From a virus (lineage: Duplodnaviria; Caudoviricetes): a stretch of 62,337 nucleotides of DNA. Each line of letters starts with the position of its first letter. The first letter of the stretch is position 1. Below the pieces are notes generated by a model. The model was not told the origin of the DNA. It searched no databases and was given only the letters and a program-made list of their open reading frames with translations. The stretch lies in IMG/VR virus record IMGVR_UViG_3300025128_000029, positions 1 through 62,337 of that record. One strand, given 5' to 3'. Below, one piece after another: positions 5,375-44,830 of this stretch. The position numbers and the translations under genes are program-made.

Positions 5375-6226
5375 TTATGTTCTCCGAGACTGAGGTAACC
5401 CTCTTCTATACGCATCAGCATTTTCTCGTGCTTCTGCTAAATCTTTTAATCTTGCCACACTTTCTAAAAACCTACCATTATATAAATCTAATATATCTTT
5501 TTCACCTTTTAAGTAAGTATAAGCTTCAAATAACGATCCGTAAAGTAAAGCATTTTTTGCATTTTCACTTAACCATGTGACTGTAGTATCAGATCCTATT
5601 GCCGAAATAGTAGTCGTTGCACCACTACTTGAACCTGTAATCGTTTCTCCAACTGTAAAAGTTCCTGTGGGAACAACAACTATCGCTGAAGTAGTAGTCG
5701 GTTTGCTATTTAATGTAGTTGTTTGACCACTACTTGCACCTGTAATCGTTTCTCCATCTGTGAAGCTACTACTTAACGCAAGAGTTAAAGTTATTGTACT
5801 TTTAGTTAAACTCGTTGGTCTATAATAATAATGTAATTCTAACGCATACCCAGAATTAGGGGTAGGGGCTACTATAAAATGGTCTACATCAAAGCGTGCA
5901 TAATATTTAGGAAGACCTGTAGTAGAAGCACTCGGAGTATAGTCTCTTAAAAAGTTTACGTCTTTTTCAAGCAAAAAAGTTTCTGAACCAGAAGTCGTTA
6001 TCTGTAAAGAAAAAGGGGCAAGCAAATCACTAGGTACAGTTAAGTATTGGTCTGAAGAAGTAAAAGCCCCTGTTACATTTTTTCTAAAATATTCTAAATC
6101 GACTGATTTAAATAATCTTTCTTCAGCAGAAAATATGAAGTCAGGTAAATGAGTAATAAAACTACTTTCTTCTGTCTCAGTATAATCTTTTATTGCTGTT
6201 TTTAATTGTGTGTATGTATAACTCAT
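5375..6226 (-). CDS. head-tail adaptor / tail tubular protein A-like, with inserted domain
   Basis: YTYTQLKTAIKDY...AEERL, PTP..Y..ELHYYYRP, LLYGSLFEAY motifs; insert with two F..GETITG.SSG.T repeats. Confidence 0.65.
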   Translation of the reverse strand: MSYTYTQLKTAIKDYTETEESSFITHLPDFIFSAEERLFKSVDLEYFRKNVTGAFTSSDQYLTVPSDLLAPFSLQITTSGSETFLLEKDVNFLRDYTPSASTTGLPKYYARFDVDHFIVAPTPNSGYALELHYYYRPTSLTKSTITLTLALSSSFTDGETITGASSGQTTTLNSKPTTTSAIVVVPTGTFTVGETITGSSSGATTTISAIGSDTTVTWLSENAKNALLYGSLFEAYTYLKGEKDILDLYNGRFLESVARLKDLAEARENADAYRRGLPQSRRT

Positions 6227-15799: not shown

Positions 15800-18225
15800 T
15801 ATTGTCCTGCCTTCCCATTTGCATTCTGGGCTTGCCTTTGTAATGCAATATTCGCTCTCATTTGTGCAATATCCTCTGTGCTATCTATTCGCTCTCTTTG
15901 TATCGCATTAGACTCTTGCATTTTTTGTTTATCCAACTGTAACTTAGCTTGGTCTTGCATAGCATCTTGTTGTTGTTCTTGGGCTTTTAAATCTAACTCT
16001 TGTTGTTTAATCTCTACTAACGGATCATCACTTTCTTTTGGTGGGTTCGCTTGTAAATATTCTGCCATTAATTCTGCTTGTACTTCTGAGACTCTATTCT
16101 CCATAGCTACTGGATCTGGTTGTTCCTGTTGTGCCATAGCTGGATCCATCGCTCCATCCATAGGTGGTTGTGCCATTTCCTGCTCGACCATTACTTTTGC
16201 TTTCAAAGCTAAATGTTCATATATATGTTTTTCTAATGTCATCAATACTGCTGGTTGTAATTTAGCTGTTTGACTCTGCATATATATCTGGTGTACTGCA
16301 ATATGTGCATCATGATTCTGTTCAGGAAACGCAGTTAATTTACTTTGTCCTATAGCAGCATCACTTGCTTCTTGGTTTTCTGTTCCAGGATCTTTTGGTT
16401 GTGGTTGTGGCTTAGGAGTTAATATCTGGTCAATATTACCTACACCTAAAGCTTCATACATACGTTTATAACTCTCATACATATTGTGCATTTCTGGTGC
16501 AGCTTGAGCCAATTTTAATTGTTCTTGAGCTAAAATTACTCTTTGCGACATACTAAAAATATTAGGGTCGCTTACTGGAAGCACATCAATACGTTGGTCA
16601 AAATCTTGTGCTTTTATCTGTTGGTCAACACCTGTTTCATAAGGATAAGGCACAGGGTCTTGTGCAAACTGTCTCGCAAGCATTTTTAATTCTATTTTCA
16701 TAGAAGCATGCAATCTCTTATGCACAGCATTAATTACTCTAGCACCACGCTCAAGTAAAGCGATTGTAGTTCCAACTGGCATCTCTTGTTTACCATCACC
16801 TACACCAATATCACTTGTGCCTACAAATTTTTGTGCAGCCGATACAACAAATCCCATCAATTCAAACAATGTTCTACTTGGCTCTTTATAGGGTAAAGGC
16901 ATTAATACTGAACGTAAATCTCCTCCTGGAACATCTACATCTCTAAATTCTCCAGGACTCAAAGGTTCACTATCATTTGCAATTCGCATTCCTCTTGCTT
17001 TAAATCCTGCTGGCATATTACTCAATGTACCTGCATCTATCAACTGTCTGAGGTTCGCTGTCGCTGTTCTACTTAAATTACCTATCATATGAATTAATCC
17101 AAAACCATAAAACCCTAATCCTGGAGTAAACTTATATTGCACAAAATGTTGAATCTTTTGCTTCTGTATATCGTCTGGCATAAAGTTACGGCGAACACTC
17201 AACACATCGCTTGTATCGCTACAAACTGTTACGATATATGGTAACTTTATGCCAGTCTCTTCACCCTGTTCATCTTTATCTGTATATTCTTCTATGTCTA
17301 AATAACAATGGCACTCGTACAATGTAAATTCTTCATCATAAGAATTACTGTTTGTACCCGAAATTTCATTATACTTATCTGTAATCTGGTCAGCATCTTC
17401 AGCAGAGCCACCTTTCATATCCACATTACTGTAAATTCCATTCCGTTGTTGTTTTTTGAGTTCATTCTCACTTATCTTTATAGTATGCGTTACTCTCTCA
17501 GCACTGCGTAAATCAGTTGCTGTGTAAGGTACTACTAATTCCTCAGCAGGAATAAACTTACTTACAGGTCTACCCAATACTTCATCGCGATAAACCTTTT
17601 TAAACGCACTACCAGCAAGACCTAGAAAATATAACATCTGATCAAACTCGGGCTCGTATTCTTCCATCTGGTACATAACCATATAATTCATGTACTCAGT
17701 TACTCGTTTTGCTTGTTTTTCAACTTCTGGGTTAGAAGTTCCTACTATATGAGCTCTCACTGGACCACCACTCGGCATCATCTCTTTATATGCCCCAGCC
17801 TGAAACTGAGTAACAGCTTCATTCAACATGGGGTGGATTACTCCAGTTGCACCCTCAAAAGGTTCACTACGTTGCTCATAACGTAAACCAAGTAAATCTA
17901 ATCCTTTTGTATAACCCTCTTCCCATTCGGAACGGCTATTTTTATCTTCTTCTACAGAATCTAATACATAACTAGAAACCTCACTCAAACTATCATCTGA
18001 TAAATTATCTACTAAATTATCAAAAAAGTTTTCTGGCTCACCACCCATAGGGGCTTCTTCATCGCCAAATTGTATTTCAACCCCACCCTCTTCATCTTCC
18101 TCAATCTCAAAATCTACCTGCTGAGCTTCCTGTGCCAGTAAATCATCTTCCTCTAAACTAAGGGTATCATTGGGGGCTTGTATAAGCGATCGGTCTACAT
18201 TACTTGGACGTGGTGAAATAGCCAT
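15799..18225 (-). CDS. portal protein
   Basis: 808 aa after TerL; PFEGATGVIHPMLNEAVTQFQA, GSAFKKVY, PGLGFYGFGLIH, LRQLIDAGTL. Confidence 0.9.
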   Translation of the reverse strand: MAISPRPSNVDRSLIQAPNDTLSLEEDDLLAQEAQQVDFEIEEDEEGGVEIQFGDEEAPMGGEPENFFDNLVDNLSDDSLSEVSSYVLDSVEEDKNSRSEWEEGYTKGLDLLGLRYEQRSEPFEGATGVIHPMLNEAVTQFQAGAYKEMMPSGGPVRAHIVGTSNPEVEKQAKRVTEYMNYMVMYQMEEYEPEFDQMLYFLGLAGSAFKKVYRDEVLGRPVSKFIPAEELVVPYTATDLRSAERVTHTIKISENELKKQQRNGIYSNVDMKGGSAEDADQITDKYNEISGTNSNSYDEEFTLYECHCYLDIEEYTDKDEQGEETGIKLPYIVTVCSDTSDVLSVRRNFMPDDIQKQKIQHFVQYKFTPGLGFYGFGLIHMIGNLSRTATANLRQLIDAGTLSNMPAGFKARGMRIANDSEPLSPGEFRDVDVPGGDLRSVLMPLPYKEPSRTLFELMGFVVSAAQKFVGTSDIGVGDGKQEMPVGTTIALLERGARVINAVHKRLHASMKIELKMLARQFAQDPVPYPYETGVDQQIKAQDFDQRIDVLPVSDPNIFSMSQRVILAQEQLKLAQAAPEMHNMYESYKRMYEALGVGNIDQILTPKPQPQPKDPGTENQEASDAAIGQSKLTAFPEQNHDAHIAVHQIYMQSQTAKLQPAVLMTLEKHIYEHLALKAKVMVEQEMAQPPMDGAMDPAMAQQEQPDPVAMENRVSEVQAELMAEYLQANPPKESDDPLVEIKQQELDLKAQEQQQDAMQDQAKLQLDKQKMQESNAIQRERIDSTEDIAQMRANIALQRQAQNANGKAGQ

Positions 18226-19709
18226 TAGTAATAAATCCTTTCTTTAGGTATTGGATCTTCATCTTGATAATCCTCTGGGTGGGTTATAAACCCTCCCTCT
18301 CTAAATCTTCTCAAAGCTTGTGACACTGTATCAACATAATCGTCGTGTTCTCCTGCAGGAAATGCTGCACACTCTTCAACAACATCTTCAGCCCATGATG
18401 TATCTGGACACCATACTAACCCACTTTCGAACAAAGGTGCAATAGAATTTACTCGACTTATCTTATCATTTCCTCTACTAGGAGAATAATTAGTGACGGG
18501 GATCCCCATCTGCCTTAGTTCTTGGGTCAATGGCATACCCGAAGCTTTTGCCTCAATTAAAACCATTTCTGGCTCCCAATACTTATATTCTTCCAAAGCT
18601 TTCCTTCTTAACTCTGGAAAATCCCATCTACCCTTTCTCGCATCAACAAGAATAATGTTCGGAGGTTCACCCTCCTTTGGGTAAAAAACACCCCATGTTG
18701 TTATCGCACTATAATCTGCTGATTCCTGTTTACTAAATGCTGTATCATAACTCTGCATTACATATTCCAAAGCAGGTAACTCTTTCTTCTCCCACTTCTT
18801 CCACCAATCACGCTTAATTATCGCACTGACATCACTCGTCGGATTCTGCTGCCACTGAGCTTCCCACTTACCAACTGACAAACTTCCCTTTACGGCAAGT
18901 AAATCTTCCTTCTTCCAAAACTCACCCCATAAAGGTTCATCATTCGGCATCAACGCAGGAAACTCTATTATCTCCCATTTATCAGCCAGTATATCTCTCG
19001 CTTGCTGTCTTATCAATTTACCAGTTAAATCATTCTCAGCCCATCGCGTCATCACAATTACTATCGTTCCTCCTGGCTGCAATCTCTGTCTCGGACCAGA
19101 AGTGTACCATTCATAAGCATGCTCTAAAGCCGTCGGACTTAAAGCATCTTGCTCAGAATGGGGGTCATCAATAATTAATAAATCTGCACCTCGACCAGTA
19201 ACAGCTCCTCCTACTCCAGCAGCAAAATACTCTCCACCCTTATCCGTCTCCCAACGACCTGCTGCTTGGGAATCAACTCGTAAAGCAACCTTTGGAAAAA
19301 TTTTTAAATATTCTTGGCTATTCATCAAGTTACGAGTCTTACGTCCAAAACGAAAAGCAAGCTCAGCAGTATGCGTTGTCTGCATAATCTTCAACATAGG
19401 GTTCCTACCCATTAACCATGCTGGAAGCATAAAACTCGCAAATTCACTTTTAGTATGTCTAGGGGGCATGTTTATTATAACACGCTTTAAATCTCCCGTC
19501 GCCACTCGATTAAACTTTTCTGCCATAAGCTTATGGTGGCGTCCATGGATAAATCCATCCCAAGTCTGCTCCACAAAAGTTAAAAAATCCTTTTGGGCTA
19601 ACTCGGAATCTTCCATCTCCTTCGCTCTCTGCATTAAGTTCGCAAAATGCTTTAAACGATCCTCTGGTATTAACTCAATATCCATAGCCATTATTTTTTT
19701 ATATATCAA
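18225..19709 (-). CDS. terL: terminase large subunit
   Basis: INMPPRHTKS Walker A, LLIIDDP Walker B, SYDTAF and HDDYVD nuclease motifs; true start may be 19691. Confidence 0.95.
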   Translation of the reverse strand: MIYKKIMAMDIELIPEDRLKHFANLMQRAKEMEDSELAQKDFLTFVEQTWDGFIHGRHHKLMAEKFNRVATGDLKRVIINMPPRHTKSEFASFMLPAWLMGRNPMLKIMQTTHTAELAFRFGRKTRNLMNSQEYLKIFPKVALRVDSQAAGRWETDKGGEYFAAGVGGAVTGRGADLLIIDDPHSEQDALSPTALEHAYEWYTSGPRQRLQPGGTIVIVMTRWAENDLTGKLIRQQARDILADKWEIIEFPALMPNDEPLWGEFWKKEDLLAVKGSLSVGKWEAQWQQNPTSDVSAIIKRDWWKKWEKKELPALEYVMQSYDTAFSKQESADYSAITTWGVFYPKEGEPPNIILVDARKGRWDFPELRRKALEEYKYWEPEMVLIEAKASGMPLTQELRQMGIPVTNYSPSRGNDKISRVNSIAPLFESGLVWCPDTSWAEDVVEECAAFPAGEHDDYVDTVSQALRRFREGGFITHPEDYQDEDPIPKERIYY

Positions 19710-19772
19710 AAATTTTTATAGGGCAATGAACCTATGACCTTTTTCTGGATAAGGGGGGTACTGACTTAATAA

Positions 19773-19859
19773 TTTTTTGACGTCACAAATTTTGCGAGGA
19801 ACATGGCAAGCCCCCTTGATAGGGCTTGCCTAAAAGTCTCTAGGGGGGGCGTCAAAAAA
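19773..19859. other. dyad-symmetric non-coding element, candidate genome terminus/packaging site
   Basis: TTTTTTGACG (19773-82) / CGTCAAAAAA (19850-59) around a centred GGCAAGCCC-N8-GGGCTTGCC hairpin (19805-30); G6/G7 runs nearby. Confidence 0.4.
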
Positions 19860-19885
19860 CCCTGTTAACCTATAGGCTAACAGGG
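19854..19885 (-). terminator. intrinsic terminator of 19903..20358
   Basis: minus strand CCCTGTTAGCCT-AT-AGGTTAACAGGG-TTTTTT. Confidence 0.75.
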
Positions 19886-19902
19886 CTAGGGGGTAACCTA
19901 AG

Positions 19903-20358
19903 TTACTTAGTTGTTGTTGGCATAGTGCTAACAAGTTTAATAAAAGGTGTACCCCAACTGCTACTACTAGGGCTATAACCACCATTTAACAGGGCTAATA
20001 AACAATTAGGTTTTTTACTGCTATGCCCTAAAGGTTTGCCAACTGCTAGGCTAGTACTAACAAGGTTACAAACCTTACCTGTTGTTTTGTTTTTAACACC
20101 ATGCAACATTGCATTTTGTATTATTGCCCTAACCCCATTAGGTTTACCACCATACCCAAAAGGTACAGGGTTAGCCTGTTGTAGTTTGCAATTAGGTAAT
20201 GGTACTATTTGTGCGTTAGCCATACTACCACCACAATTATTATTAATAAAAGCCCATAAACTAGCATAGGTTACCTCGTTGCCTGTATGTGTTAAAGTTG
20301 CGTAAGTTGTTGTTGGTGCTGTATTAGGTGCTACCTTACCTTTTGTTGTATTTTGCAT
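19903..20358 (-). CDS. hypothetical basic protein, Asp-free paralog of 20616..21059
   Basis: shared PVPFGYGG.P.GVR, PLGHS.KKP.CL.AL..GGYSPSS..W.TP.IKLV; own RBS (AAAAAGGGG) and terminator. Confidence 0.85.
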   Translation of the reverse strand: MQNTTKGKVAPNTAPTTTYATLTHTGNEVTYASLWAFINNNCGGSMANAQIVPLPNCKLQQANPVPFGYGGKPNGVRAIIQNAMLHGVKNKTTGKVCNLVSTSLAVGKPLGHSSKKPNCLLALLNGGYSPSSSSWGTPFIKLVSTMPTTTK

Positions 20359-20390
20359 TTTATACCCCTTTTTGGTTAATGCGTTAAAGT

Positions 20391-20426
20391 TGCTATTATA
20401 TAAACATTTATTTGTAATTTTTGCAA
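20391..20426 (-). promoter_or_regulatory. putative promoter of 19903..20358
   Basis: TATAAT at 20400-20395 (TATAATAGCA, also at 25180-25171); TTGCAA upstream with non-ideal spacing. Confidence 0.5.
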
Positions 20427-20470
20427 AACCAAAATAGTAGTTCTCTATATATAACCCCTATATTAATGCT

Positions 20471-20570
20471 TATGATTAGACCTCTCTCCATCCATCCTCT
20501 CATCGGGGAAATCATCGGGAATCCTCATCCTCTGGTCGGGGAAAATCCTCACGAATCATCGGAAGGCAAT
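20471..20570. repeat. TC/GA-dense degenerate repeat spacer
   Basis: ATCCTC / ATCGGG(G)AA units; 26 TC+GA in 100 nt by hand count. Confidence 0.75.
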
Positions 20571-20573
20571 GTC

Positions 20574-20605
20574 AAAAAAAGAGGGGACAGTCGCCTGTCG
20601 CCCTC
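20574..20605 (-). terminator. intrinsic terminator of 20616..21059
   Basis: minus strand GAGGG-C-GACAG-GCGA-CTGTC-CCCTC-TTTTTTT. Confidence 0.8.
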
Positions 20606-20615
20606 GTGTTAGATG

Positions 20616-21059
20616 TTAAGCTTTGACTACGAGCTTGATGTATGGAGTCATCCAGTATTTGCTGGACGGTGAGTATCCTCCGTGCATGAGAGCATGTAGA
20701 CAAGTAGGCTTTTTGCGACTGTGTCCAAGAGGAGCAGCTTTATTGAGTATGGTTTTAAGGGACATGTCCTTGTCCTTGCCGACACCGAATAATAACCAAT
20801 CCTGAATCATTTGTCGGACCCCTCCAGGCTGACCTCCGTAACCGAATGGGACAGGCTTGTCACTTTTTAAGTCACAGTTATCAAGTGGAACAACCACTAC
20901 GTTAGATTCTTGACCTCCTGCATGCTCCTGGACAAACTTCCAGATATCATTGTAGGATAGCTCCTTGTCAGTCACTTTTAACTCAACTGATTTTACAGTT
21001 TTAATTGGAGCGTCTAAGGTTAATGATGCCTTAGTCATCTTTTTAGTAGTTTTAGTCAT
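20616..21059 (-). CDS. hypothetical protein, normal-composition paralog of 19903..20358
   Basis: same motifs; TCGTAGAAAGGGG leader; 9 Asp + 4 Glu. Confidence 0.85.
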   Translation of the reverse strand: MTKTTKKMTKASLTLDAPIKTVKSVELKVTDKELSYNDIWKFVQEHAGGQESNVVVVPLDNCDLKSDKPVPFGYGGQPGGVRQMIQDWLLFGVGKDKDMSLKTILNKAAPLGHSRKKPTCLHALMHGGYSPSSKYWMTPYIKLVVKA

Positions 21060-21112
21060 TGTAATCCCCTTTCTACGAGATTGTTAAGTTAATAGCTGTT
21101 TGCTATGATTAA

Positions 21113-21141
21113 AGAATAGCAATTAATTTGTCTAGTTACAA
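21113..21141 (-). promoter_or_regulatory. sigma70-like promoter
   Basis: TTGTAA-17 nt-TATTCT with TG extension. Confidence 0.6.
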
Positions 21142-21187
21142 GTCTATTATTGTCCTATTTATTCGTTTTTTATCCTCAAATTAGACA

Positions 21188-21298
21188 ATCAATCTGGCGT
21201 CATCATCTTTCTTCTTCGGCGTCGTCAATCATCCTCTTTCCTCGGTGAAAAGAAACGATGACGCGAGGATGAAAGACGATAGAGGAAGATTGATGAGA
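21188..21298. other. bipartite TC-rich then GA-rich non-coding element
   Basis: 15 TC/0 GA in 21188-21243, then 15 GA/0 TC in 21247-21298. Confidence 0.8.
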
Positions 21299-21300
21299 AA

Positions 21301-21732
21301 CTAATCGTTGTCAGGACGACCCGATGATGATAGAATATGATTGATAATGCCCGTCCAGTCGTACGGGATTCTCGTCTCAAAATCAGGGATCAAGTCATCC
21401 TCCCTCCTCGGTGATTCTGTCCACTGTCTAGCTCGCCAACCCCCAAATAATTTGAGCGACGAGGAAGAGAGATGATGAACCAAGTTCCAGACATGTCCTG
21501 ATTGCGAAGAATATTGAGTTTGCCAGAGAATTTGGTGAGGAGACAAATTGATGGACTTTAATGACTTTAACCTGTGGACTTTCAATTCTAACCAAAAGGC
21601 ATGACCATCAACTATACCATGCAGATCTGGAACTCCAGGAATAGCCCACGACTCAAGACGTGTCCAAAACACCCCTTGAGCCTTTGTGTTGTCGCGTAGA
21701 TTATGCCACAGTTTGGACTCAGGCTTTTTCAT
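21301..21732 (-). CDS. VRR-NUC / PD-(D/E)XK nuclease (Holliday junction resolvase-like)
   Basis: PESKLW...RLES...GVPDL...FWLELK...LSPHQ. Confidence 0.75.
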   Translation of the reverse strand: MKKPESKLWHNLRDNTKAQGVFWTRLESWAIPGVPDLHGIVDGHAFWLELKVHRLKSLKSINLSPHQILWQTQYSSQSGHVWNLVHHLSSSSLKLFGGWRARQWTESPRREDDLIPDFETRIPYDWTGIINHILSSSGRPDND

Positions 21733-21977
21733 TAATCACACTCTACCTGCTCTACGTCATGTCGCCATTTTAGTAGATACTCACATACTCGTTTCCAAGT
21801 ATTTTGCACACTAGGGTCAACGTCTTCTACATGACCACTATTATACTCGTCATCACACTCTACAAAAAAGTTACTATCCTCTTCTATAGTACCATAGCAA
21901 TAGATTGTCCCTCCGTTTGGTTTGTTGTGGACGTAATCAATATGGTGACCTCGCTCGGTCGTTACATTATATGGCAT
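21732..21977 (-). CDS. hypothetical early protein
   Basis: preceded by TCGTAGAAAGG leader. Confidence 0.6.
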   Translation of the reverse strand: MPYNVTTERGHHIDYVHNKPNGGTIYCYGTIEEDSNFFVECDDEYNSGHVEDVDPSVQNTWKRVCEYLLKWRHDVEQVECD

Positions 21978-21982
21978 CAGTT

Positions 21983-22436
21983 AATCCTTTCTACGATTAA
22001 TTAAGTTATATTTAATAATAGCATAAAATACGTCTAGGTGTTTAATTTATTATCAAGAGTTCTCCGTGTCACGGAAGTAGTCTACTTGTACTTTAATGGC
22101 GATGCCGTCTTGTTCGGCTCCATTCCTCATTTCTTTTATAACACTAATAGCCTCGTCTAAGCTTTTCTGGTCAACAACTTTTGTAAACCAACTGATAAAG
22201 TCGCCTCCCTCTTCAATGTTATACAAAAAAGCATAGACTTCCTGAGGGGAAGACATTGTTATTACTAACCGACCATCTTCTCCCCACTGCTCAGTATAAG
22301 TACTAATATTATCAATAACAACAGGGTTGATATAGTAGGTGCTATGACCTGATTCTTTGATTAAAGTGTTAAACAACATGATAAATCCTTTCTACGATTA
22401 ATTTGTTTATACTTATATAATAGCATAAAATACGTC
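21983..22436. repeat. direct repeat of promoter/RBS cassette flanking 22053..22379
   Basis: AATCCTTTCTACGATTAATT at 21983 and 22384; ATAATAGCATAAAATACGTC at 22015 and 22417. Confidence 0.85.
22053..22379 (-). CDS. hypothetical early protein
   Basis: TCGTAGAAAGG leader; 108 aa. Confidence 0.6.
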   Translation of the reverse strand: MLFNTLIKESGHSTYYINPVVIDNISTYTEQWGEDGRLVITMSSPQEVYAFLYNIEEGGDFISWFTKVVDQKSLDEAISVIKEMRNGAEQDGIAIKVQVDYFRDTENS

Positions 22437-22983
22437 AAGTGGTGTCTTTTATTACCTTACTTTCTCCCTCTATGACAAGGTTATCTTCAGTAAAAGATTT
22501 GAGTGCAGGAAACTCTTCCTGGATTCTCTTAATTTCTTTCATGACCTCGTCGCGATTCATCGAGTCAATCTTTCCATGCAGAATCTCTTTGCGATCAATA
22601 TAAAGTCCGGCAGCTTGACCTCGGGACTTCTCTGCCGCGACTGCTGCTGCGAAATTCCCTCCTGTCATAGCTTGATCTCTGATCTCGGCTAATTTTTTGA
22701 CGTGTCCTTCAAATGAGACTTCATATTTTTTAGACAGCTCAGCTTTAAGCTCTTTGATTCGGGCGACTACTGCTGGATATCGGGTTCCGTTGAGGAGTTG
22801 CGATGCTATTGCATGAGCTGATGCGACAGAGTATCCTGCTCTTATCGCTGCTTCAGTCTGGCTTATGTCTTCAGTTACATAAATCTTAGCGAACTCTTCT
22901 TGTTTGGGAGTGATCCCCTTCTCCGATCGGGGATTGCCTACAATATCTAATGTGGGCTTATGTGTCTTTTTTGCTAATGCCAT
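22435..22983 (-). CDS. terS: terminase small subunit
   Basis: ITPKQEEFAKIYV...TEAAIRAGYS...ASQLL...AEKSRGQAAGLY; start MALAKK after AGGAG. Confidence 0.8.
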   Translation of the reverse strand: MALAKKTHKPTLDIVGNPRSEKGITPKQEEFAKIYVTEDISQTEAAIRAGYSVASAHAIASQLLNGTRYPAVVARIKELKAELSKKYEVSFEGHVKKLAEIRDQAMTGGNFAAAVAAEKSRGQAAGLYIDRKEILHGKIDSMNRDEVMKEIKRIQEEFPALKSFTEDNLVIEGESKVIKDTT

Positions 22984-23058
22984 AATTATCTCCTGTACTT
23001 TACATAATAGGAGCAGACTAAGAATTTGCAAAGAATTTTTTTATCTCCGATAACAGTG

Positions 23059-23153
23059 TGTGACCAGATGAAGTAAGATATTAGATATTGTATATCGGAA
23101 TATTTCTAAAAAATAATTCATTAACTTTTTCATTTCACTCCTATATAAGCAAA
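23059..23153. repeat. non-coding element copy A (origin-like; copy B at 44747-44830)
   Basis: TGTGACCAGAT, ATATTGTATATCGGAA, AACTTTTTCATTT, CCTATATA, GCAAA blocks shared with copy B. Confidence 0.75.
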
Positions 23154-23185
23154 CTCCGTGGACCATTGTTATCGGTCCACGGAGT
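23153..23185 (-). terminator. hairpin/terminator
   Basis: ACTCCGTGGACC-N9-GGTCCACGGAGT perfect 12-bp stem. Confidence 0.65.
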
Positions 23186-23216
23186 CTTAGGGGTATAAGG
23201 GTAAACGTAGAGAGAT

Positions 23217-23456
23217 TTACCCTTTGAGAATTCTATTCCAAGCAGTTTCTAAAAGCAAGTAGTGATCGGTATCCATACTTTTTTTATTTAGTTTAAGATA
23301 CGTGGAGATAATGGACACAGCAGATTGCCATGACATATCTTTTAGTTTTTCATCCCAATAGGCTTTACTGTCTTGTTCAGCCCAATATTTATCATCACGA
23401 TCGTATGGGTGACGTGGTAGTTTAGTGCTTGTCGTCATACCTTCTTTATTTTCCAT
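23217..23456 (-). CDS. hypothetical early protein
   Basis: 79-aa ORF with GAGG RBS. Confidence 0.5.
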   Translation of the reverse strand: MENKEGMTTSTKLPRHPYDRDDKYWAEQDSKAYWDEKLKDMSWQSAVSIISTYLKLNKKSMDTDHYLLLETAWNRILKG

Positions 23457-23466
23457 AGTTTTCCTC

Positions 23467-23658
23467 CTATATTTCTATGGTTGCGTAGTCAATGAGTTCT
23501 ACTTTAATTTTTTCTGGGTGATGAACTTTGTTTAATCGTTCAACTTCTGCCATTTGTGATACTCTATCATTTGTGACATTATATTCTACTTCGCCATCTG
23601 GGTAAGTAGTTTTCCATAAATATTTTTTGCCTGTCGGCGACATAACATCAAGAGCCAT
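23467..23658 (-). CDS. hypothetical early protein
   Basis: start revised to MALDVMSP after GGGAG. Confidence 0.5.
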   Translation of the reverse strand: MALDVMSPTGKKYLWKTTYPDGEVEYNVTNDRVSQMAEVERLNKVHHPEKIKVELIDYATIEI

Positions 23659-23854
23659 TCGGTTTCTCCCTGAAAGTATTAGCGAATTGTTTAGCATTAT
23701 GATAAGTACCTGTAAAATAATCAACAACCTCATACATCGGCGAACCCCAACACTCATCATAGTCGGGGTAAAGGGTAATATCGCCCTTTTTATTACCAGT
23801 CGCAAAATTATCTTTAGCCCATCTTAGGACAACCCACTCTTTAACATCTTGCAT
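23648..23854 (-). CDS. hypothetical early protein
   Basis: GAGGAG RBS, promoter upstream. Confidence 0.55.
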   Translation of the reverse strand: MQDVKEWVVLRWAKDNFATGNKKGDITLYPDYDECWGSPMYEVVDYFTGTYHNAKQFANTFREKPNGS

Positions 23855-23891
23855 TAACTTCTCCTCTTAAGTTATTGTTTACGTTAAATAA

Positions 23892-23920
23892 ATAATAGCA
23901 ACGGATAACCCGATAAGCAA
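23892..23920 (-). promoter_or_regulatory. sigma70-like promoter
   Basis: TTGCTT-17 nt-TATTAT with TG extension. Confidence 0.6.
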
Positions 23921-23927
23921 TTCTTGT

Positions 23928-24254
23928 TTAATCATTTAGCCTCACAATATCATCTTCCCCAAAATATGTACCGAGTTGTGTTTCAATAATGGTTAGAGGT
24001 CCATCAGTCTCGTTTGCTATATAATGAATACTTGTTTGTGGGATATCTATACTTTCCCCTTTTACGAGAGAGTAGAATACACCATCAAGGTAAACAGTTG
24101 CTTCCCCTTTTGTAATGAGCCAATGTTCACTCCTGTGCATATGATATTGTTTAGAGATTTGTTTATATGGATTAATCGTCAGTTTTTTTACTTTACAATC
24201 GTGATCGAGTTGTAGAACTTCAAACTTGCCCCATATTCTATTGACTATGTCCAT
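23928..24254 (-). CDS. cupin, mannose-6-phosphate isomerase type II C-terminal-like
   Basis: R.WGKFEVL...KVKKLTINP...S.QYH.HRSEHW...IIETQLGTYFGEDDIVRL; start MDIVNR after AGGAG. Confidence 0.8.
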   Translation of the reverse strand: MDIVNRIWGKFEVLQLDHDCKVKKLTINPYKQISKQYHMHRSEHWLITKGEATVYLDGVFYSLVKGESIDIPQTSIHYIANETDGPLTIIETQLGTYFGEDDIVRLND

Positions 24255-24281
24255 CGTTTTCTCCTGAAAAAAAAATTTTGT

Positions 24282-24353
24282 GCTTACATAATCAATCAAA
24301 GTTTCCCAATAAACTTCTGCGTCGCCACGCAAATTAAGACTGATTATGTAAGC
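24282..24353 (-). ncRNA. candidate three-way-junction RNA
   Basis: 16-bp outer stem (one G-U on minus strand) enclosing UGCGU-GGCG-ACGCA and AAGUUU-AUUGGG-AAACUU. Confidence 0.4.
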
Positions 24354-24435
24354 TAGAGCAGGAAGGAGGTACAGAAAGGAGATGCCCCCCTTCAATCAAG
24401 AGACAATAACTAAACTCTTGATCATAACCACTACT

Positions 24436-24795
24436 CTATTCTGTCTTTATAAATACTCCATCTAAATTATAACCTTTTCTATCTTGGATCTCAACTAATG
24501 CCTTGCGTAAACAATCTTTTACACTAATCTCATTCCTAATCATGATATTTATCATTACAACCAACATATCACCAAGTGAATCGGTTAGGTCATTATAAAT
24601 ATCGGAACAAATATCATCAGATAATTCACCTAATTCCTGCATCAACTTTAAACATTGGTCTTTGTCGGAACTACCCTCTATTAATCCTCTATTTTCATGC
24701 CACTTTTTTACTTCGTCAATGAGTTCGTCGTACTCCATTGAATCGAACTTAGAGCTAGTCCATCTTCTGGCATTTGGCTTACTAAAATCACTCAT
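24436..24795 (-). CDS. MazG-like NTP pyrophosphohydrolase
   Basis: W...RGL...QCLKLMQELGEL...DSLGDMLVV...EIQDRKG...DGVFIK. Confidence 0.8.
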   Translation of the reverse strand: MSDFSKPNARRWTSSKFDSMEYDELIDEVKKWHENRGLIEGSSDKDQCLKLMQELGELSDDICSDIYNDLTDSLGDMLVVMINIMIRNEISVKDCLRKALVEIQDRKGYNLDGVFIKTE

Positions 24796-29482: not shown

Positions 29483-29716
29483 TTAGTTTTCAGGTCGCCA
29501 TTGGCTTCCAGTGAGAGTTCCACAATCAAAACAAGCAATCTGATGACTTTCATCAGACAACATCAAAAACGATTGTGAGCCACATAATCCACAGACAACA
29601 ACCTCAACCTCGTTAGTTACTACTTGTAATCCTGGGAGGGGTTTTGGTTTAGTCGGGAATGGTATGATGTTAGATCCTCCATGAATGGGGGAATTTTTCT
29701 TTTTTTCCATGTACAT
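29483..29716 (-). CDS. small Zn-ribbon protein
   Basis: CGLC...CFDC. Confidence 0.45.
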   Translation of the reverse strand: MYMEKKKNSPIHGGSNIIPFPTKPKPLPGLQVVTNEVEVVVCGLCGSQSFLMLSDESHQIACFDCGTLTGSQWRPEN

Positions 29717-30144
29717 ATATCCCTTGCTAATTGTTTATCATAATAATAATAATCTTGATACGCAAGCACTGGATCTGAAGTTTTATATTCTTCAGGCATC
29801 GCTTGAGCAAATTTAGTAAACCCCCTTGCTGTCAGTCCTGTGGGTGGGGATTTAATTAGGCAAAGCACTTGCTCACAAGCATGAATACGTTCATATCTGT
29901 AAGTATATTCTTTACATAAAGCGATGCCTAACTTCCATAACCACCGATAATTTTCTAATGTCTGTCCAGCCCACAAAGTACAAGGGTGTTTTTGATGAAC
30001 AATTTTGTATGGTCCTTCTTCATTATACCTATAGAATACTGTACTGAGCATTTGTGTTGTTTCTAAAGGCATTTTGACAATATGCTTATCACAGTGGTAT
30101 TCAGCACATTTCTTATGGTTGTAGTCCAGTACGAAAATGTTCAT
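29620..30144 (-). CDS. pyrimidine-dimer DNA glycosylase (DenV)-like protein
   Basis: MNIFVLD...HCDKHIVKM.LE..QMLST...HPCTLW...NYRWL...EYTYRY. Confidence 0.7.
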   Translation of the reverse strand: MNIFVLDYNHKKCAEYHCDKHIVKMPLETTQMLSTVFYRYNEEGPYKIVHQKHPCTLWAGQTLENYRWLWKLGIALCKEYTYRYERIHACEQVLCLIKSPPTGLTARGFTKFAQAMPEEYKTSDPVLAYQDYYYYDKQLARDICTWKKRKIPPFMEDLTSYHSRLNQNPSQDYK

Positions 30145-33555: not shown

Positions 33556-33844
33556 TTAATCTTACCTCTGCCTCCACTAATAACAAGTACCTCCTTAAAT
33601 CTTGTATATCATCTAATATACCCTCTGGGCGAGTATCTTCCTTTATTGCTTGGAAAACATCGTAATTAACTTTTGTTACTTGGTTCTCAAGCCTATCCCA
33701 TTTACGAGCAAGCATCATAAAAGCACCTACACCACCTCGCTTTTTCCAACTATCACCGTAAGATTGCTCAGCTTCATGTAACCCTTTTACATCTTCGTTT
33801 GCTAATGTATTTACTTTTTGTATTATCTTACTTCTAGTACTCAC
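33518..33844 (-). CDS. nucleotide-modification-associated domain 1 (Nmad1/DUF1599-like, MazG-fold)
   Basis: SYGDSWKKRGGVGAFMMLARKWDRL...DDIQDLRRYLLL; GTGA overlap suggests GTG start at 33844. Confidence 0.65.
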   Translation of the reverse strand: MSTRSKIIQKVNTLANEDVKGLHEAEQSYGDSWKKRGGVGAFMMLARKWDRLENQVTKVNYDVFQAIKEDTRPEGILDDIQDLRRYLLLVEAEVRLNGITRPEDKSSL

Positions 33845-34824
33845 TTCAGTCTCCTCTCTAACCATTCTATACAAGCCCTCCTCCATGCTCTATCATTTAT
33901 TCTTGATGCAAACTTTAATGCTGTAAGTAGTTCTTTCTTTTTCCAAGCTTTCCATGACTTCATCATGGGGGTAGCTGTGTCTGTGAGATAAGTATTAGTT
34001 AATCCTTCTATAGTATAATCATCAAACCATTTGTACAACTCAGAATCAAAATTATGAGCATTATCTATTAATGGTGGCGAATTATAACTTAACCCATCTT
34101 CAGCTAATAAAAGATAAGGTTCATAATCGGGCTGTAGGGAATATAAGTTTAATTTTTCTAATACATCTGTATAAACATGAAGATTATTACTTATTTGATA
34201 ATAAGTACCAATTTTATTATCTGTCATGAAAGCCATATATTCTAACAAAAAAGACATATGTACTGCATTTGCTCCATAAGCACCCCAGATCATATCATTA
34301 CTTCTGTTTACCACAGTCATATTAAGATAACCTTTTCTAGCCCAAAAAAAGACTTGTGTATTACAAGGATAATCTACTCCTGTGTTTGTTGAAGTTAGAT
34401 CAGCATAAGGATCCCACATACCTACTACAACTCTACGATCATTAGGGTAACTTAACAATCTGTTTTTAGCTATGTTTAATTGGTCTACACCAAAGTGCTT
34501 CCTCCAGCGATGTCCGTATGCACCATGAAAGGTAATACCGTCATCGCTATAATTATTCATTCTTCCGTTAAATTGGCTAATCCACTCTACATCATTACGA
34601 CCTGCTAACATCCATAAGCTTTCCATAAAATGGAAATATGGGTTAGCATCACGTTGAGGGTAAAACAATACTCTTTCCCAACTGTGTGTGTATTCTGTGC
34701 AAACAGGCATTGGAAACTCTAAAGCTTTACCATTTCTAGTATCTACCTCTACCCCTGTGTTTTGGATAACCTGTATGCCGTGATATAAAGCCTCACTAAC
34801 ACCTCTACTATATATATTGTACAA
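33841..34824 (-). CDS. dUMP hydroxymethylase (thymidylate synthase superfamily)
   Basis: TRNG, ANPYFHFMESLWML.GRND, AYG.RWR, catalytic DYPCN, RSNDMIWGAYGANAVH with Asn (dUMP-type) specificity residue, NLHVY. Confidence 0.8.
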   Translation of the reverse strand: MYNIYSRGVSEALYHGIQVIQNTGVEVDTRNGKALEFPMPVCTEYTHSWERVLFYPQRDANPYFHFMESLWMLAGRNDVEWISQFNGRMNNYSDDGITFHGAYGHRWRKHFGVDQLNIAKNRLLSYPNDRRVVVGMWDPYADLTSTNTGVDYPCNTQVFFWARKGYLNMTVVNRSNDMIWGAYGANAVHMSFLLEYMAFMTDNKIGTYYQISNNLHVYTDVLEKLNLYSLQPDYEPYLLLAEDGLSYNSPPLIDNAHNFDSELYKWFDDYTIEGLTNTYLTDTATPMMKSWKAWKKKELLTALKFASRINDRAWRRACIEWLERRLK

Positions 34825-34909: not shown

Positions 34910-35905
34910 CTACTCAATGTTTAAGAACTGCTTGTATTGGCTACCTATTATTATAGGGTCGTGTAATTTAAGAGCATTATACCCATTTTCTCTAATTGAT
35001 GGTATAGAATCAGAGTAAGCCCCATTGAGTATAGTAGCCAACTCTTCTGCAGAGCCAACAGCAAAACAGTTATAATCAGGCTTCATATCATCAGGTTCGT
35101 CAAGTATCCACTTATTATGTATAATAGGAATACATCCTGCATTCCAAGATTCTAAAGCTGTGTATTGTGTTCCACCACCATCACCCACTATTTGCGTCAT
35201 ATCTACATTAAACACATAATCTTGCATTAACTTAAACGCAAAATCATTTTCTCTAGGGTAATGGGCTTTAGATTGTACCCACTCTGGATACTTTGGCACA
35301 ATTTTAAACCGAGTAAAAATTCTGTTTTCAAAACCTCTTATATTTATTTTCTTATCTTCAGTTAATAACCTATTAGCATCTAATAATATTTCAGTGTGCT
35401 TATCAAAATCAATACGCGAAGTACTTACAGCACCCTTTCTATCAAGGTTAGTATGTTTAGGAAAAGGTGTATAAGGGTGACGGATAAAGGTTGCCCCCTC
35501 AAAAGTTCTTGCACCTATTTGTCTAATAACAACACACCTTTTAGGGTCTAAATCAACAGGTAAGTTTTTTAATTCAGTTGGGTCATGAACAACGATACTT
35601 GCACCTATATCGTACAATAGCTGTGTTTCTTCTTTAAACTGCTTTGCCCCAGCGACAACTAACTTAATCGTTTCTTTGTACTCGTTGTTTACAATAGTTT
35701 TACGATTCCTAGCCTCAGCCATAGAAATATTTCTATAATGTTTACCATAACCAAACTCACGGCTTTTGCGTTCACTCTTTGGTCTTATCTTAAACAGGGT
35801 ACACTTAACTCCTACTGCTTCAAGGGCTTCCATCAAATGATTAGTATAAGTAACCCAACCTCCATACGGATTAGGGCTTAAATAAAATAAATCTACATGT
35901 GTCAT
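34910..35905 (-). CDS. GT-B fold glycosyltransferase (GT4-like), putative DNA glycosyltransferase
   Basis: PYGGWVTYTNHL N-terminal loop, VVHDP, TSRIDFDKH, GGGTQYTALESWNAGCIPI; ATGA overlap gives start 35905. Confidence 0.7.
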   Translation of the reverse strand: MTHVDLFYLSPNPYGGWVTYTNHLMEALEAVGVKCTLFKIRPKSERKSREFGYGKHYRNISMAEARNRKTIVNNEYKETIKLVVAGAKQFKEETQLLYDIGASIVVHDPTELKNLPVDLDPKRCVVIRQIGARTFEGATFIRHPYTPFPKHTNLDRKGAVSTSRIDFDKHTEILLDANRLLTEDKKINIRGFENRIFTRFKIVPKYPEWVQSKAHYPRENDFAFKLMQDYVFNVDMTQIVGDGGGTQYTALESWNAGCIPIIHNKWILDEPDDMKPDYNCFAVGSAEELATILNGAYSDSIPSIRENGYNALKLHDPIIIGSQYKQFLNIE

Positions 35906-36816
35906 GCTACAGGTCCTTCCAATGTTTTCCATTTGTTGTAATTTAAAAGTGAACTAAGATGGGCATCGTACTTACTACGAGGTGTACCTTGCCCTAATCT
36001 AACTCTTTCATACTTATCCCACTCACACAGGCTATGCTCTATAGTTCGCATATCTACGTTTTCAATGGAGACTACATTTCTAGTACCCTGTGCAATATCT
36101 AATACTTTTTTCATTTCTATATTAGACTGAACAGCAGTTAGTCCTTTAGTAAGGGGTCTATCGTATAACCTGTTTAAACCTCGTTTTGCTCCTGGACCTG
36201 CGTTCGCCCAAGTAAAACGGTCTGTCGCCTCGTCCAGTATGCGTGTGTAGTTGAGATCGGTAACCACTTCGTAAGACATAAAGCCCCCTCCACCCCACCC
36301 ACGATAGGCAGACATCGCATGGTGTAAGGCTTGTAACGACTGAGTGTTGGTCGCAATCTCGGCAAGTTTTTCTTTGCTTTCCCAAATAGGGGTGAGGAAA
36401 TGGTCAACTACAACTTCTCCTTTAGGTAACTTTAACCCTTGATTAGTTATAATATATGCTCCTGTAAAAGTTCGCAACTTCTTAGCCAATCGTTCGGCGA
36501 TTAATTGCTTAGTATATTCAGGATCCCACTTTGAAGCCCAACCATGAGCCTCAGCAAACTCAGTTGTACCAACCATTCTAAACAAACAACAGTTAAATAT
36601 TATTTCGCCATCGGGTTTATTATGGTTTGGGTTTGTCCAGTTCTGACGCATCCATATAGTAACCTTATCGTTTTCACGGAAAGGGTTTGTAAATTTATAC
36701 TCTTGGAGTATTTTATCTTTTGTAAAGGGAGGTGGATCACCAATTACTTTTTTTCGGTAAATAGCATGTCGCTCATTTATCCAATAAAAGAACCTTTCTA
36801 AGTTCTCTATGTTCAC
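35902..36816 (-). CDS. aGPT-Pplase1-like DNA base hypermodification protein (HhH glycosylase-derived)
   Basis: FFYWINERHAIY.KK..G.PPP.T.D.ILQ.YKFTN.FRENDKVT, FTGAYII, FMSYEVVTDL, ANAGPGAKRGL, EH.LCEWDKY.R. Confidence 0.8.
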   Translation of the reverse strand: MNIENLERFFYWINERHAIYRKKVIGDPPPFTKDKILQEYKFTNPFRENDKVTIWMRQNWTNPNHNKPDGEIIFNCCLFRMVGTTEFAEAHGWASKWDPEYTKQLIAERLAKKLRTFTGAYIITNQGLKLPKGEVVVDHFLTPIWESKEKLAEIATNTQSLQALHHAMSAYRGWGGGGFMSYEVVTDLNYTRILDEATDRFTWANAGPGAKRGLNRLYDRPLTKGLTAVQSNIEMKKVLDIAQGTRNVVSIENVDMRTIEHSLCEWDKYERVRLGQGTPRSKYDAHLSSLLNYNKWKTLEGPVA

Positions 36817-36818
36817 AA

Positions 36819-37430
36819 TTACTCTCCCATACCTAGCTGGATTACTTTGTTTTGAATAGCAATAGTAATATCTCTGGCACTTCCTGGAGAAGGCTCTAGC
36901 TTACGCAAAGATTGTAATGCTTCACCTAAAGTATCAGAGTTTAAAATAACCATCATATTTCTATAACGATTTGTACCCTCACGCATAGGGGGTGAATCCA
37001 TAAGCTTTTTTATTTTTACATGAGGTTCTAACTTATGAATAGGCATAGATGTCAATGTTCCATCAGCAACTATGTTTAAGACTTCTTTGGTAGCTTCTGG
37101 TGTTAATTCAGTCATTTTCTTTCCTTCTGTTTTTTCTATAGGTTTATATTTTTTGGAGTGTGTTTCCACATATTCAAAAAAGTTAGTATAATGTTGGTCT
37201 TCGTTATACTTGTGAAAATGATATTGGTTACAGGCTACAAGAATCCACTTTAAATCTTCAGCAGAATAATCCCTTTGTAACTGTTGTATATCAGAGAAGA
37301 CAATACTATACTCATTAACTTCTTTACACTCTTTACTTGCACTTAATGTAGGAAAATGAAAAAAGCTATAAGCTGTATTCTTCCCACTATTATTATCGTT
37401 TTCTAAAACGATGTACACTTGTCTTGCCAT
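36819..37430 (-). CDS. hypothetical protein heading the modification operon
   Basis: start MARQVY after AGAAAGG; C-terminal PMREGTNR...TLGEAL...DI..AI....IQL domain. Confidence 0.55.
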   Translation of the reverse strand: MARQVYIVLENDNNSGKNTAYSFFHFPTLSASKECKEVNEYSIVFSDIQQLQRDYSAEDLKWILVACNQYHFHKYNEDQHYTNFFEYVETHSKKYKPIEKTEGKKMTELTPEATKEVLNIVADGTLTSMPIHKLEPHVKIKKLMDSPPMREGTNRYRNMMVILNSDTLGEALQSLRKLEPSPGSARDITIAIQNKVIQLGMGE

Positions 37431-37513
37431 GTATCTTTCCTTTCTATGAAAAAATGCCAATGTTCATATTCTGCAATATGCACATTGGCATGACAAGGTT
37501 TATTTTGTCGGTA

Positions 37514-44746: not shown

Positions 44747-44830
44747 TGTGACCAGATATTGTATATTGTATATCGGAAAAGTTGTGAATACAAGTTATTA
44801 AACTTTTTCATTTACCCCCTATATAGCAAA
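44747..44830. repeat. non-coding element copy B (origin-like) in the divergent intergenic region
   Basis: same blocks and same 22-nt spacing as 23059-23153; AT-rich flanks. Confidence 0.75.

Follow-up and report, generated by a model that had tools for sequence, protein, structure and literature searches.

Phased, strand-switching TC/GA arrays beside a GA/TC-free gene in the packaging region of a marine phage genome

Inverted TC and GA arrays between terS and terL

We analysed a complete virus record of 62,337 nucleotides (nt) (IMGVR_UViG_3300025128_000029, Caudoviricetes; this whole stretch is called the window below) and, within it, an intergenic element at 21188-21298 in which TC dinucleotides crowd one half and GA dinucleotides the other. 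Nearly all genes of the window lie on the minus strand. In the order of transcription, the locus holds the small terminase subunit gene terS (Terminase_2, 22435-23031), two small genes, a gene for a VRR-NUC-like nuclease of 143 amino acids (aa) (21301-21732), the element, a promoter, paralog 2 (147 aa, 20616-21059), a terminator, a second array, paralog 1 (151 aa, 19903-20358) and the large terminase subunit gene terL (18225-19709), with all of these genes on the minus strand. The element thus follows terS at 1.1 kb and precedes terL by 1.5 kb, a location of the pac type, and the replication module lies apart from it at 44.6-23.5 kb, the remainder of the genome being structural genes. The closest cultured phages are the Pelagibacter phages HTVC027P and HTVC023P and phage 023Pt_psg01, with TerL 57-61% identical. 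The phage is of the HTVC023P type of marine phages and belongs to an abundant group of ocean phages, which are probably SAR11 viruses.

On the plus strand, the TC half (21188-21243, 56 nt, 73% pyrimidine) contains 15 TC and no GA, and the GA half (21247-21298, 52 nt, 81% purine) contains 15 GA and no TC; a recount reproduced exactly the numbers given in an earlier note on this DNA. Read on the minus strand, the TC half is a promoter-proximal GA array that includes the core-like site GAGGATGATTGACGAC (core match at 21219, minus strand, 2 mismatches), and the GA half is a UC-rich stretch that begins 2 nt past the nuclease stop codon. The two halves abut, and an AT-rich centre is absent. When a 52-nt segment was required to hold 12 or more of one dinucleotide and no more than 1 of the other, the two halves were the sole qualifying sites in the window. 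As a control, 100 dinucleotide-preserving shuffles of the whole window were examined. The maximum number of GA in a TC-free 52-nt segment was 15, compared with a shuffle mean of 6.7 and a shuffle maximum of 9, and the maximum number of TC in a GA-free 52-nt segment was 14, compared with a mean of 10.8 and a maximum of 14. The GA half and the juxtaposition of the two halves are the exceptional part of the element; on this T/C-rich strand, the TC half taken by itself is a borderline case. Counting both strands, 49% of all T in the element is followed by C, against 17% genome-wide.

The spacing of the TC and GA steps, described in the earlier note as 3-4 nt, proved to be a regular 3-3-4 rhythm with a period of 3.33 nt. 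Genome-wide, the 15 strongest 55-nt segments for power at this period all fall within 21151-21266. For the pooled arrays of 37 dereplicated loci (36 relatives and the window), GA-GA distances peaked at 3, 7, 10, 13 and 20, which corresponds to three GA:TC steps per 10-bp turn. Against an expectation of 3.7, the window holds 13 copies of the word GAKGATGA, 7 of them inside 20525-21478.

The relatives were defined by the nuclease: 80 of 130 IMG/VR relatives were taken and dereplicated to 36 spacer types besides the window. Every spacer downstream of the nuclease contains GA-rich repeats of the GAKGAT or GATTGA kind. A conserved promoter (GACTTG-spacer-TGCTAYTCT) followed by a 5' stem-loop and the leader CTCGTAGAAAGGAG is present in 24 of the 37 spacer types (window included), and in each of these 24 a GA array in coding orientation stands before the promoter; the GA array is in turn preceded by a TC half of 54-62 nt in 12-13 of the 24, as in the window. 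The remaining 13 spacer types consist of ~600 nt of non-coding sequence with GATTACGA-GAGAGAG repeats and TGATC(G/A) units at 10-bp intervals. The 15-nt core GATGATTGAYGATGA, with at most 2 mismatches, was found at the locus in 34 of the 36 dereplicated relatives, with 5 matches elsewhere in those loci. Five whole genomes of the family, the window among them, have dense strand-pure segments solely at this locus, which also gives the top period-3.33 signal in each. Across the 13 spacers that could be aligned, mean column identity was 57%, yet the TC-then-GA counts hold at ~10-17 and 8-19, respectively. It is therefore the dinucleotide pattern that is kept in the relatives, and not exact sequence or base pairing; as regards pairing, the earlier note had proposed the same. 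Between the window and its close relative L019, two substitutions make GAGGATGA on both arms, with no compensation. The arrays persist at one locus across relatives in which the nuclease is just 61-69% identical. We read the element as a real and probably cis-acting DNA element, present once per genome and composed of two inverted, 10-bp-phased arrays with GATGATTGAYGATGA-like core sites.

In loci anchored on the paralogs, most relatives carry extra arrays past the paralog-2 terminator, in the order GA array, perfect AT-rich palindrome, inverted TC array. The window has the GA part alone at this position: its second array (20475-20565, TRF period 33), between the paralog-2 terminator and the paralog-1 promoter, has GA motifs on the minus strand (GATGATTCGTGAGGATT and similar) and thus 19 TC and 6 GA on the plus strand. 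Array number (two or three per locus) and orientation vary among loci. TerS is 70-83% identical to that of the window across all array types, and relative L066, which has different repeats, has no TerS within 3 kb. Short mini-ORFs (open reading frames) of the MIDD type within the arrays were considered as genes and dropped, given their inconsistent lengths and their repetition inside arrays.

Several variants of the arrays were also seen among the relatives. The AT-rich palindromes between arrays are 22-30 nt long (L119 at about 2020-2045, L107, L122, L105, L129 and L153); their sequence differs by relative and palindromy is kept, which makes them candidates for sites of cutting or unwinding. 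In L033 (3540-3620), L054, L055 and L063-L065, four to five TGATC(G/A) units at exactly 10-bp spacing, all containing GATC, stand beside TATATATAT. In L079 the usual core site is missing, and five tandem copies of TCCCCATG follow GATTCRTGA repeats with a period of ~10-11 nt at 3600-3640.

The GA/TC-free island and the thymine modification pathway

A 589-nt island at 19853-20441, spanning the promoter, 5' untranslated region (UTR), coding sequence and terminator of paralog 1, contains a single GA:TC step, at 20276. The parts on either side of it, 19853-20275 (424 nt) and 20277-20441 (166 nt), are both step-free. In comparison, the next-longest gap in the 62 kb is 59 nt, and the longest GA/TC-free gap in the shuffles had a mean of 72 nt and a maximum of 105. 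Within the island, TC was observed once against 42 expected and GA not at all against 21 expected, with observed and expected counts of 43 and 36 for TG, 33 and 40 for CA, and 83 and 71 for TT; GA/TC is the sole dinucleotide pair affected. The paralog 1 protein has 0 Asp and 1 Glu, and the codon of this Glu is the lone step of the island. Avoidance of UV photoproducts was ruled out as a cause, since TT is not depleted, as was codon or amino-acid bias, since the promoter and terminator are also step-free and one dinucleotide pair is affected. The island reaches untranscribed regions, which argues for DNA rather than RNA or protein as the target, and the data point to selection on the GA:TC step itself, on both strands and at the DNA level.

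Among the 33 relatives with enough downstream sequence, a GA/TC-free gap of at least 300 nt was present in 15 and of at least 150 nt in 21, and 12 had none above 83 nt; in the upstream parts of the same 33 relatives, such gaps were at most 56 nt. The longest gaps in relatives extend up to 862 nt (L029 3564-4424, L079 3714-4564 and L033 3882-4709). We also compared 22 paralog-1-like genes. Six had 0 GA and 0 TC, together with 0 Asp and 0 Glu, eight had 0 TC and 1-5 GA, two had small numbers of both, one had 0 GA but 23 TC, and the remaining five had ordinary numbers of both dinucleotides.

To our knowledge, thymidine hypermodification has so far been known as a restriction shield. The window encodes a 5-hydroxymethyldeoxyuridine (5-hmdU) DNA kinase (PF18723, E 2.3e-46; 35902-36816, minus strand), which is homologous to a protein of Pseudomonas phage M6 (31.8% identity over 100% of the query), a thymidylate-synthase-like enzyme (PF00303, E 2.6e-20; 33841-34824, minus strand) that is a candidate dUMP hydroxymethylase, and an HD-domain nucleotidase-like gene close to the kinase. 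Both genes expected of kinase-dependent hypermodification, a dUMP-hydroxymethylase-like gene and a 5-hmdU DNA kinase gene, are therefore present. The kinase was found in 5 of 5 near-complete relatives and is missing in HTVC027P and 023Pt_psg01, both with complete genomes (three further records, being fragments, allow no inference). The latter two genomes are also without arrays or islands, with GA/TC-free gaps of at most 80 and 74 nt and a highest period-3.33 power of ~0.7, compared with 1.4-2.4 in the family. The genes flanking the kinase (34910-35932 and 36819-37460), for which no Pfam or PHROG family was found, are candidate transferases of an undescribed thymine modification.

The M6 protein gp54 was shown to phosphorylate 5-hmdU in DNA (PMC8989533). 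In phages M6, ViI and phiW-14, cleavage-resistant restriction sites hold TG or TC, and a preference of the kinases for these contexts, with the modified T in TG/TC dinucleotides, was inferred in another study (PMC6449724). On sequence grounds, modified T at the element of the window is plausible, because the kinase gene is found beside a thymidylate-synthase-like gene, a TG/TC context has been attributed to such kinases, and a GA/TC-free cassette lies next door. The resemblance to M6, ViI and phiW-14 has its limits: the context there is a genome-wide statistic, M6 and PhiJL001 have no dense strand-specific arrays or dinucleotide-free genes, and in the window TC/GA alone, not TG/CA, is under visible selection.

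Readings of the element

The promoter of paralog 2 is of the sigma70 type (21113-21144, minus strand; GACTTGTAA, spacer, TGCTATTCT), with a -35 TTGTAA at 21141-21136 and an extended -10 TGC TATTCT at 21121-21113, and is the single match in the window. The element lies upstream of it, as the earlier note had said, separated by an A/T-rich spacer that resembles an UP element (21145-21187, minus strand) and of which relatives retain AAAGATAATTA-like sequence. Arrays in the window and in the relatives lie upstream of promoters, behind an A/T-rich stretch. Moreover, the second array of the window and the arrays past paralog 2 in the relatives lie beyond intrinsic terminators and ahead of promoters, which is evidence for a function at the DNA level. 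Spacings of 39, 49, ~70, 89 or 100 nt separate the proximal core from the promoter, and these are clustered modulo 10 (R 0.73, n 19 related sequences).

Based on these observations, we tentatively favour, with a confidence somewhat short of even, the reading that the element acts as DNA and is an array whose defining unit is the GA:TC step; it would probably be a strand-specific patch densely filled with hypermodified T, to which a protein binds. TC would be the context for kinase-dependent thymine hypermodification, and the element would carry T modified to the maximum, three per turn, over five turns of the top strand followed by five turns of the bottom strand. The modified patch, or the core sites inside it, may be the landing platform for a DNA-binding protein. 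Among possible roles, a promoter-upstream or boundary function at the late small-gene promoters comes first in our ranking, followed by packaging recognition. Arrays that activate strong promoters are familiar from rRNA P1, with its UP element and in-phase Fis sites. The array of the window is comparable in that a strong sigma70-type promoter follows it at ~40-170 nt, with an A/T-rich stretch between the two and a helical phase that looks conserved; it differs in that relative L083 has a relocated promoter without an array and that the second arrays are oppositely oriented.

A number of observations weigh against this reading. The promoter role has to contend with L083, where the relocated paralog-2 cassette has promoter and leader and no array while the arrays stay between nuclease and terL, with L066, which has the promoter but GATC-type repeats, and with the orientation of the sites to the next promoter, which differs between first and second arrays. 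The phase clustering comes from related sequences, and 10-bp slippage could yield the same without selection. As to a binding protein, the predicted structure of the paralog gave winged-helix-like matches that are weak (VIA-align Z up to 4.8, with many winged-helix domains among the weak rows) and can serve as a lead only. As for the modification, TG/CA is not depleted in the island though the cited paper infers TG as well as TC, and islands and comparable arrays are both missing in M6 and PhiJL001, which also encode the kinase, so that a link between kinase and arrays is not general. Finally, the island is missing in 12 of 33 array-bearing relatives, including G003 and G004.

A more far-reaching proposal, which we consider possible but doubtful, is that the GA:TC step is the modification context and that the phage family writes a cis-code through the density of this step. 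Saturated strand-specific arrays would mark a control site between terS and terL, and the paralog-1 cassette (promoter, gene and terminator) would be kept step-free to stay unmodified, at the price of a protein purged of Asp and Glu. A reader protein could then tell finished from unfinished DNA, and late expression or packaging might be coupled to completed post-replicative modification, as Dam methylation gates P1 pac.

The most serious rival holds that these are plain sequence-specific repeats for packaging or replication, serving either as a pac-type site bound by the ring-forming small subunit (Terminase_2) or as an iteron-type origin; the TC/GA pattern would simply follow from repetition of the core site, with modification irrelevant. 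Iteron-type and viral origins have inverted arrays around an AT-rich centre (lambda ori, SaPI ori, the SV40 GAGGC pentanucleotides), and the repeats of P1 pac are laid out 4+3 on either side of the cut. Like the origins, the element consists of phased copies of a short site, direct and inverted, which in many relatives flank a perfect AT-rich palindrome, an arrangement that resembles sites around a cutting or unwinding point. Like P1 pac, it is a short repeated element in two groups near packaging genes, a modified base inside the repeats would allow the phage to sense what state its DNA is in, and some relatives carry TGATC(G/A) repeats, at 10-bp spacing; P1 pac is described as 'seven hexanucleotide repeats', and methylation control of cleavage appears in a title cited by the same source (PMC11260489). 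There is one site per genome, between terS and terL, the core site is kept in 34 of 36 relatives, the arrays keep to this locus where the paralog-2 cassette has moved (L083), and the 10-bp phasing, extending over 50-130 bp, would be in keeping with DNA wrapped around an oligomer. What such repeats leave unexplained is the neighbouring GA/TC-free island and the maintenance of dinucleotide counts despite falling identity. The repeats of the window are asymmetric and strand-switching, lie outside terS and abut without an AT-rich or other central region, and two or three arrays per locus occur in variable number and orientation. An origin, in particular, would be placed in the packaging and not the replication module, the GC skew is uniform with no origin signal seen, and no initiator family match was found among the genes neighbouring the element. 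DNA contigs from two independent runs bridge the element, although contigs cannot show ends. On balance, we regard this explanation as unlikely. Ends of IMG/VR contigs near arrays (e.g. L037 and L040) were rejected as hints of termini because repeats and two paralogs also break assemblies, sites for IHF (WATCAANNNNTTR), a DnaA box and T7-type GTC primase sites were checked by eye and dropped, and a DnaA-trio was dropped for its misfitting polarity. We consider it very improbable that the arrays have no function of their own and are slippage-prone GAT/GAC-type triplets and 10-bp units derived from a decaying acidic C-terminal tail of the nuclease and duplicated in inverted form. The C-terminus of the nuclease does vary in length and run into the repeats, motif copies lie inside the 3' coding part of its gene, 10-bp tandem duplications are seen in spacers, and the variable number and orientation of the arrays would fit such an origin. 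Neutral repeats would be at odds with arrays that persist at one locus over this degree of nuclease divergence, at one site per genome and with their core kept, with a strand purity far beyond shuffles, and with the adjacent purged island, which points to selection on the same dinucleotide.

The other rival places the function in RNA: the UC-rich and GA-rich halves would form a long hairpin in the 3' UTR of the nuclease operon, and this hairpin would end, process or stabilise the operon's transcript before the paralog-2 promoter. Both halves together are indeed predicted to form a long imperfect hairpin with the loop UCACC (21186-21299, minus strand). The statement of the earlier note that the complementary words are not nested into one hairpin was wrong, as either strand folds as one long imperfect hairpin, with -43.5 and -44.3 kcal/mol for the two strands and 43 Watson-Crick and 5 G-U pairs. 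The energy of -43.5 kcal/mol has a z of -3.0 against whole-sequence shuffles, and 13 of 13 two-half spacers fold better than half-shuffled controls (z -0.75 to -2.9). When the halves of the element were shuffled separately, the mean was -34.8 kcal/mol compared with -42.9 kcal/mol observed (z -1.86), and 12 of 200 shuffles folded as well; most of the hairpin energy comes down to composition. Between the nuclease stop codon and the element no terminator is present, and one RNA-library contig covers 21122-21329 with a separate one at 20657-21081, a weak hint given that contigs do not show transcript ends and DNA carry-over is possible. Because of the contig across 21122-21329 the element is probably transcribed, and probably as the 3' UTR of the nuclease operon. 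RNAalifold retained 12 pairs over the 13 spacers, 2 of them with both sides changed, at -5.8 kcal/mol. In Rfam, no part of 19700-21800 reached the gathering score, and two chance-level rows fell elsewhere than the element. A terminator scan of 19500-24500 called none at 21186-21299 while calling the paralog-2 terminator at 20599-20586, and the minus strand after the hairpin, GUCUAAUUUGAGGAUAAAAAAC, lacks the U run of an intrinsic terminator. Of the relatives that share the promoter, about half possess just GA arrays and are unable to form the hairpin, and other arrays lie behind terminators.

Known intergenic hairpins of phage operons include intrinsic terminators and T7 RNase III sites. The element shares with them a long imperfect hairpin between two transcription units and differs in the missing U tract, the weak covariation, the absence from half of the relatives and the mostly compositional energy. 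We therefore hold an RNA function to be quite improbable; the RNA hairpin would be mainly a by-product, which may give the nuclease transcript an extra 3' end or stability. As for coding, one plus-strand frame of the element is open without a usable start codon, the other five have 1-4 stops, and a 32-aa plus-strand ORF had matches in 2 of 36 dereplicated relatives, both in a near-identical clade. Neither a conserved peptide nor a convincingly covarying RNA hairpin, each of which the earlier note had named as an outcome that would speak against it, was thus found, and its third such outcome, relatives lacking the pattern, did not apply either. Further RNA-level candidates were dropped: Hfq ARN repeats and box C/D k-turns after a check by eye, a CsrA GGA sponge because most repeats are without GGA and arrays lie behind terminators, and a Rho rut site because it is absent in relatives with GA arrays only.

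Returning to the favoured reading of a GA:TC-defined, protein-bound DNA array, the locus places both extremes of one dinucleotide side by side, a maximal phased strand-switching array and a gene in which two amino acids are given up. This suggests that the phage uses the GA:TC step as a signal on its own DNA. In the literature searched, we found no report of a phage shaping its own sequence around a modification context, nor of phased strand-switching dinucleotide saturation or of a neighbouring gene freed of that dinucleotide. The terms 'intergenic' and 'terminal repeat' are not present in the main text of a pelagiphage paper (PMC9599517), whose supplementary tables, outside the search, might list these genomes. 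Of M6-like hypermodification, P1 pac, iteron and viral origins, and activator arrays, none combines phased strand-switching saturation with a dinucleotide-free neighbouring gene. If the link to modification is true, the locus would offer a handle on the sequence specificity of 5-hmdU DNA kinases, on the existence of proteins that read hypermodified DNA, and on the timing of expression or packaging relative to post-replicative modification. Even without this link, a cassette of 600-860 nt lacking GA and TC calls for an explanation.

Paralogs, leaders and other features of the genome

The 5' UTR of paralog 2 (21060-21105, minus strand) has a 5' stem-loop followed by the conserved leader CTCGTAGAAAGGGG, in which the Shine-Dalgarno sequence sits in a small hairpin. 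The stem-loop varies in sequence by clade with its pairing kept (e.g. CATAAGCAATGGTGCTTATG vs ATAGCAAACAGCTAT), and the stem of the Shine-Dalgarno hairpin, with the loop GTAGAAAG, covaries (GATGTC/GACATC, GCTC/GAGC, ATCTC/GGGAT). The gene itself encodes a protein with a Lys-rich disordered N-terminus (AF2 model, pLDDT 82) and is followed by an intrinsic terminator at 20574-20599 (minus strand) with the stem at 20599-20586 and then a T run. No Pfam or PHROG family was found for the paralogs, a Foldseek search of the paralog against the PDB had no match at E <= 0.001, and its ESM Atlas matches were unnamed viral clusters only. Among cultured phages, neither a DNA search with 20000-23000 nor tblastn with paralog 2 gave any match.

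The leader CGTAGAAAGG is the mark of a group of small transcription units, each with a promoter of its own. It has five exact copies on the minus strand, at 21068, 21986, 22387, 28995 and 29418, and with at most 1 mismatch it has 10 matches against 2.2 expected. Promoter-leader blocks are repeated upstream of orf81 and orf108 (21983-22065 and 22384-22467, 76-88% identical), and a 72-nt block is common to the region upstream of terS (23076-23147) and the divergent early region at 44.8 kb (44754-44825), with 78% identity.

The nuclease gene itself has TC/GA motif copies in its 3' coding part, at 21326-21351, 21395-21414 and 21457-21478 (HHLSSSS ... PRREDDL ... ILSSSG). Two of these internal copies, paired by hand, can pair on the mRNA at 15 of 16 positions, and the length of the nuclease C-terminus differs among relatives. 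Elsewhere in the window, a 646-aa structural gene (3434-5374) contains tandem repeats of 120, 105 and 90 nt (4022-4381, 4842-5051), and the adjoining gene at 5375-6226 has a 105-nt repeat at 5610-5764. The product of the gene at 29620-30144 has a domain of pyrimidine-dimer DNA glycosylases (PF03013, E 2.6e-06), suggestive of UV repair in a surface-ocean phage.

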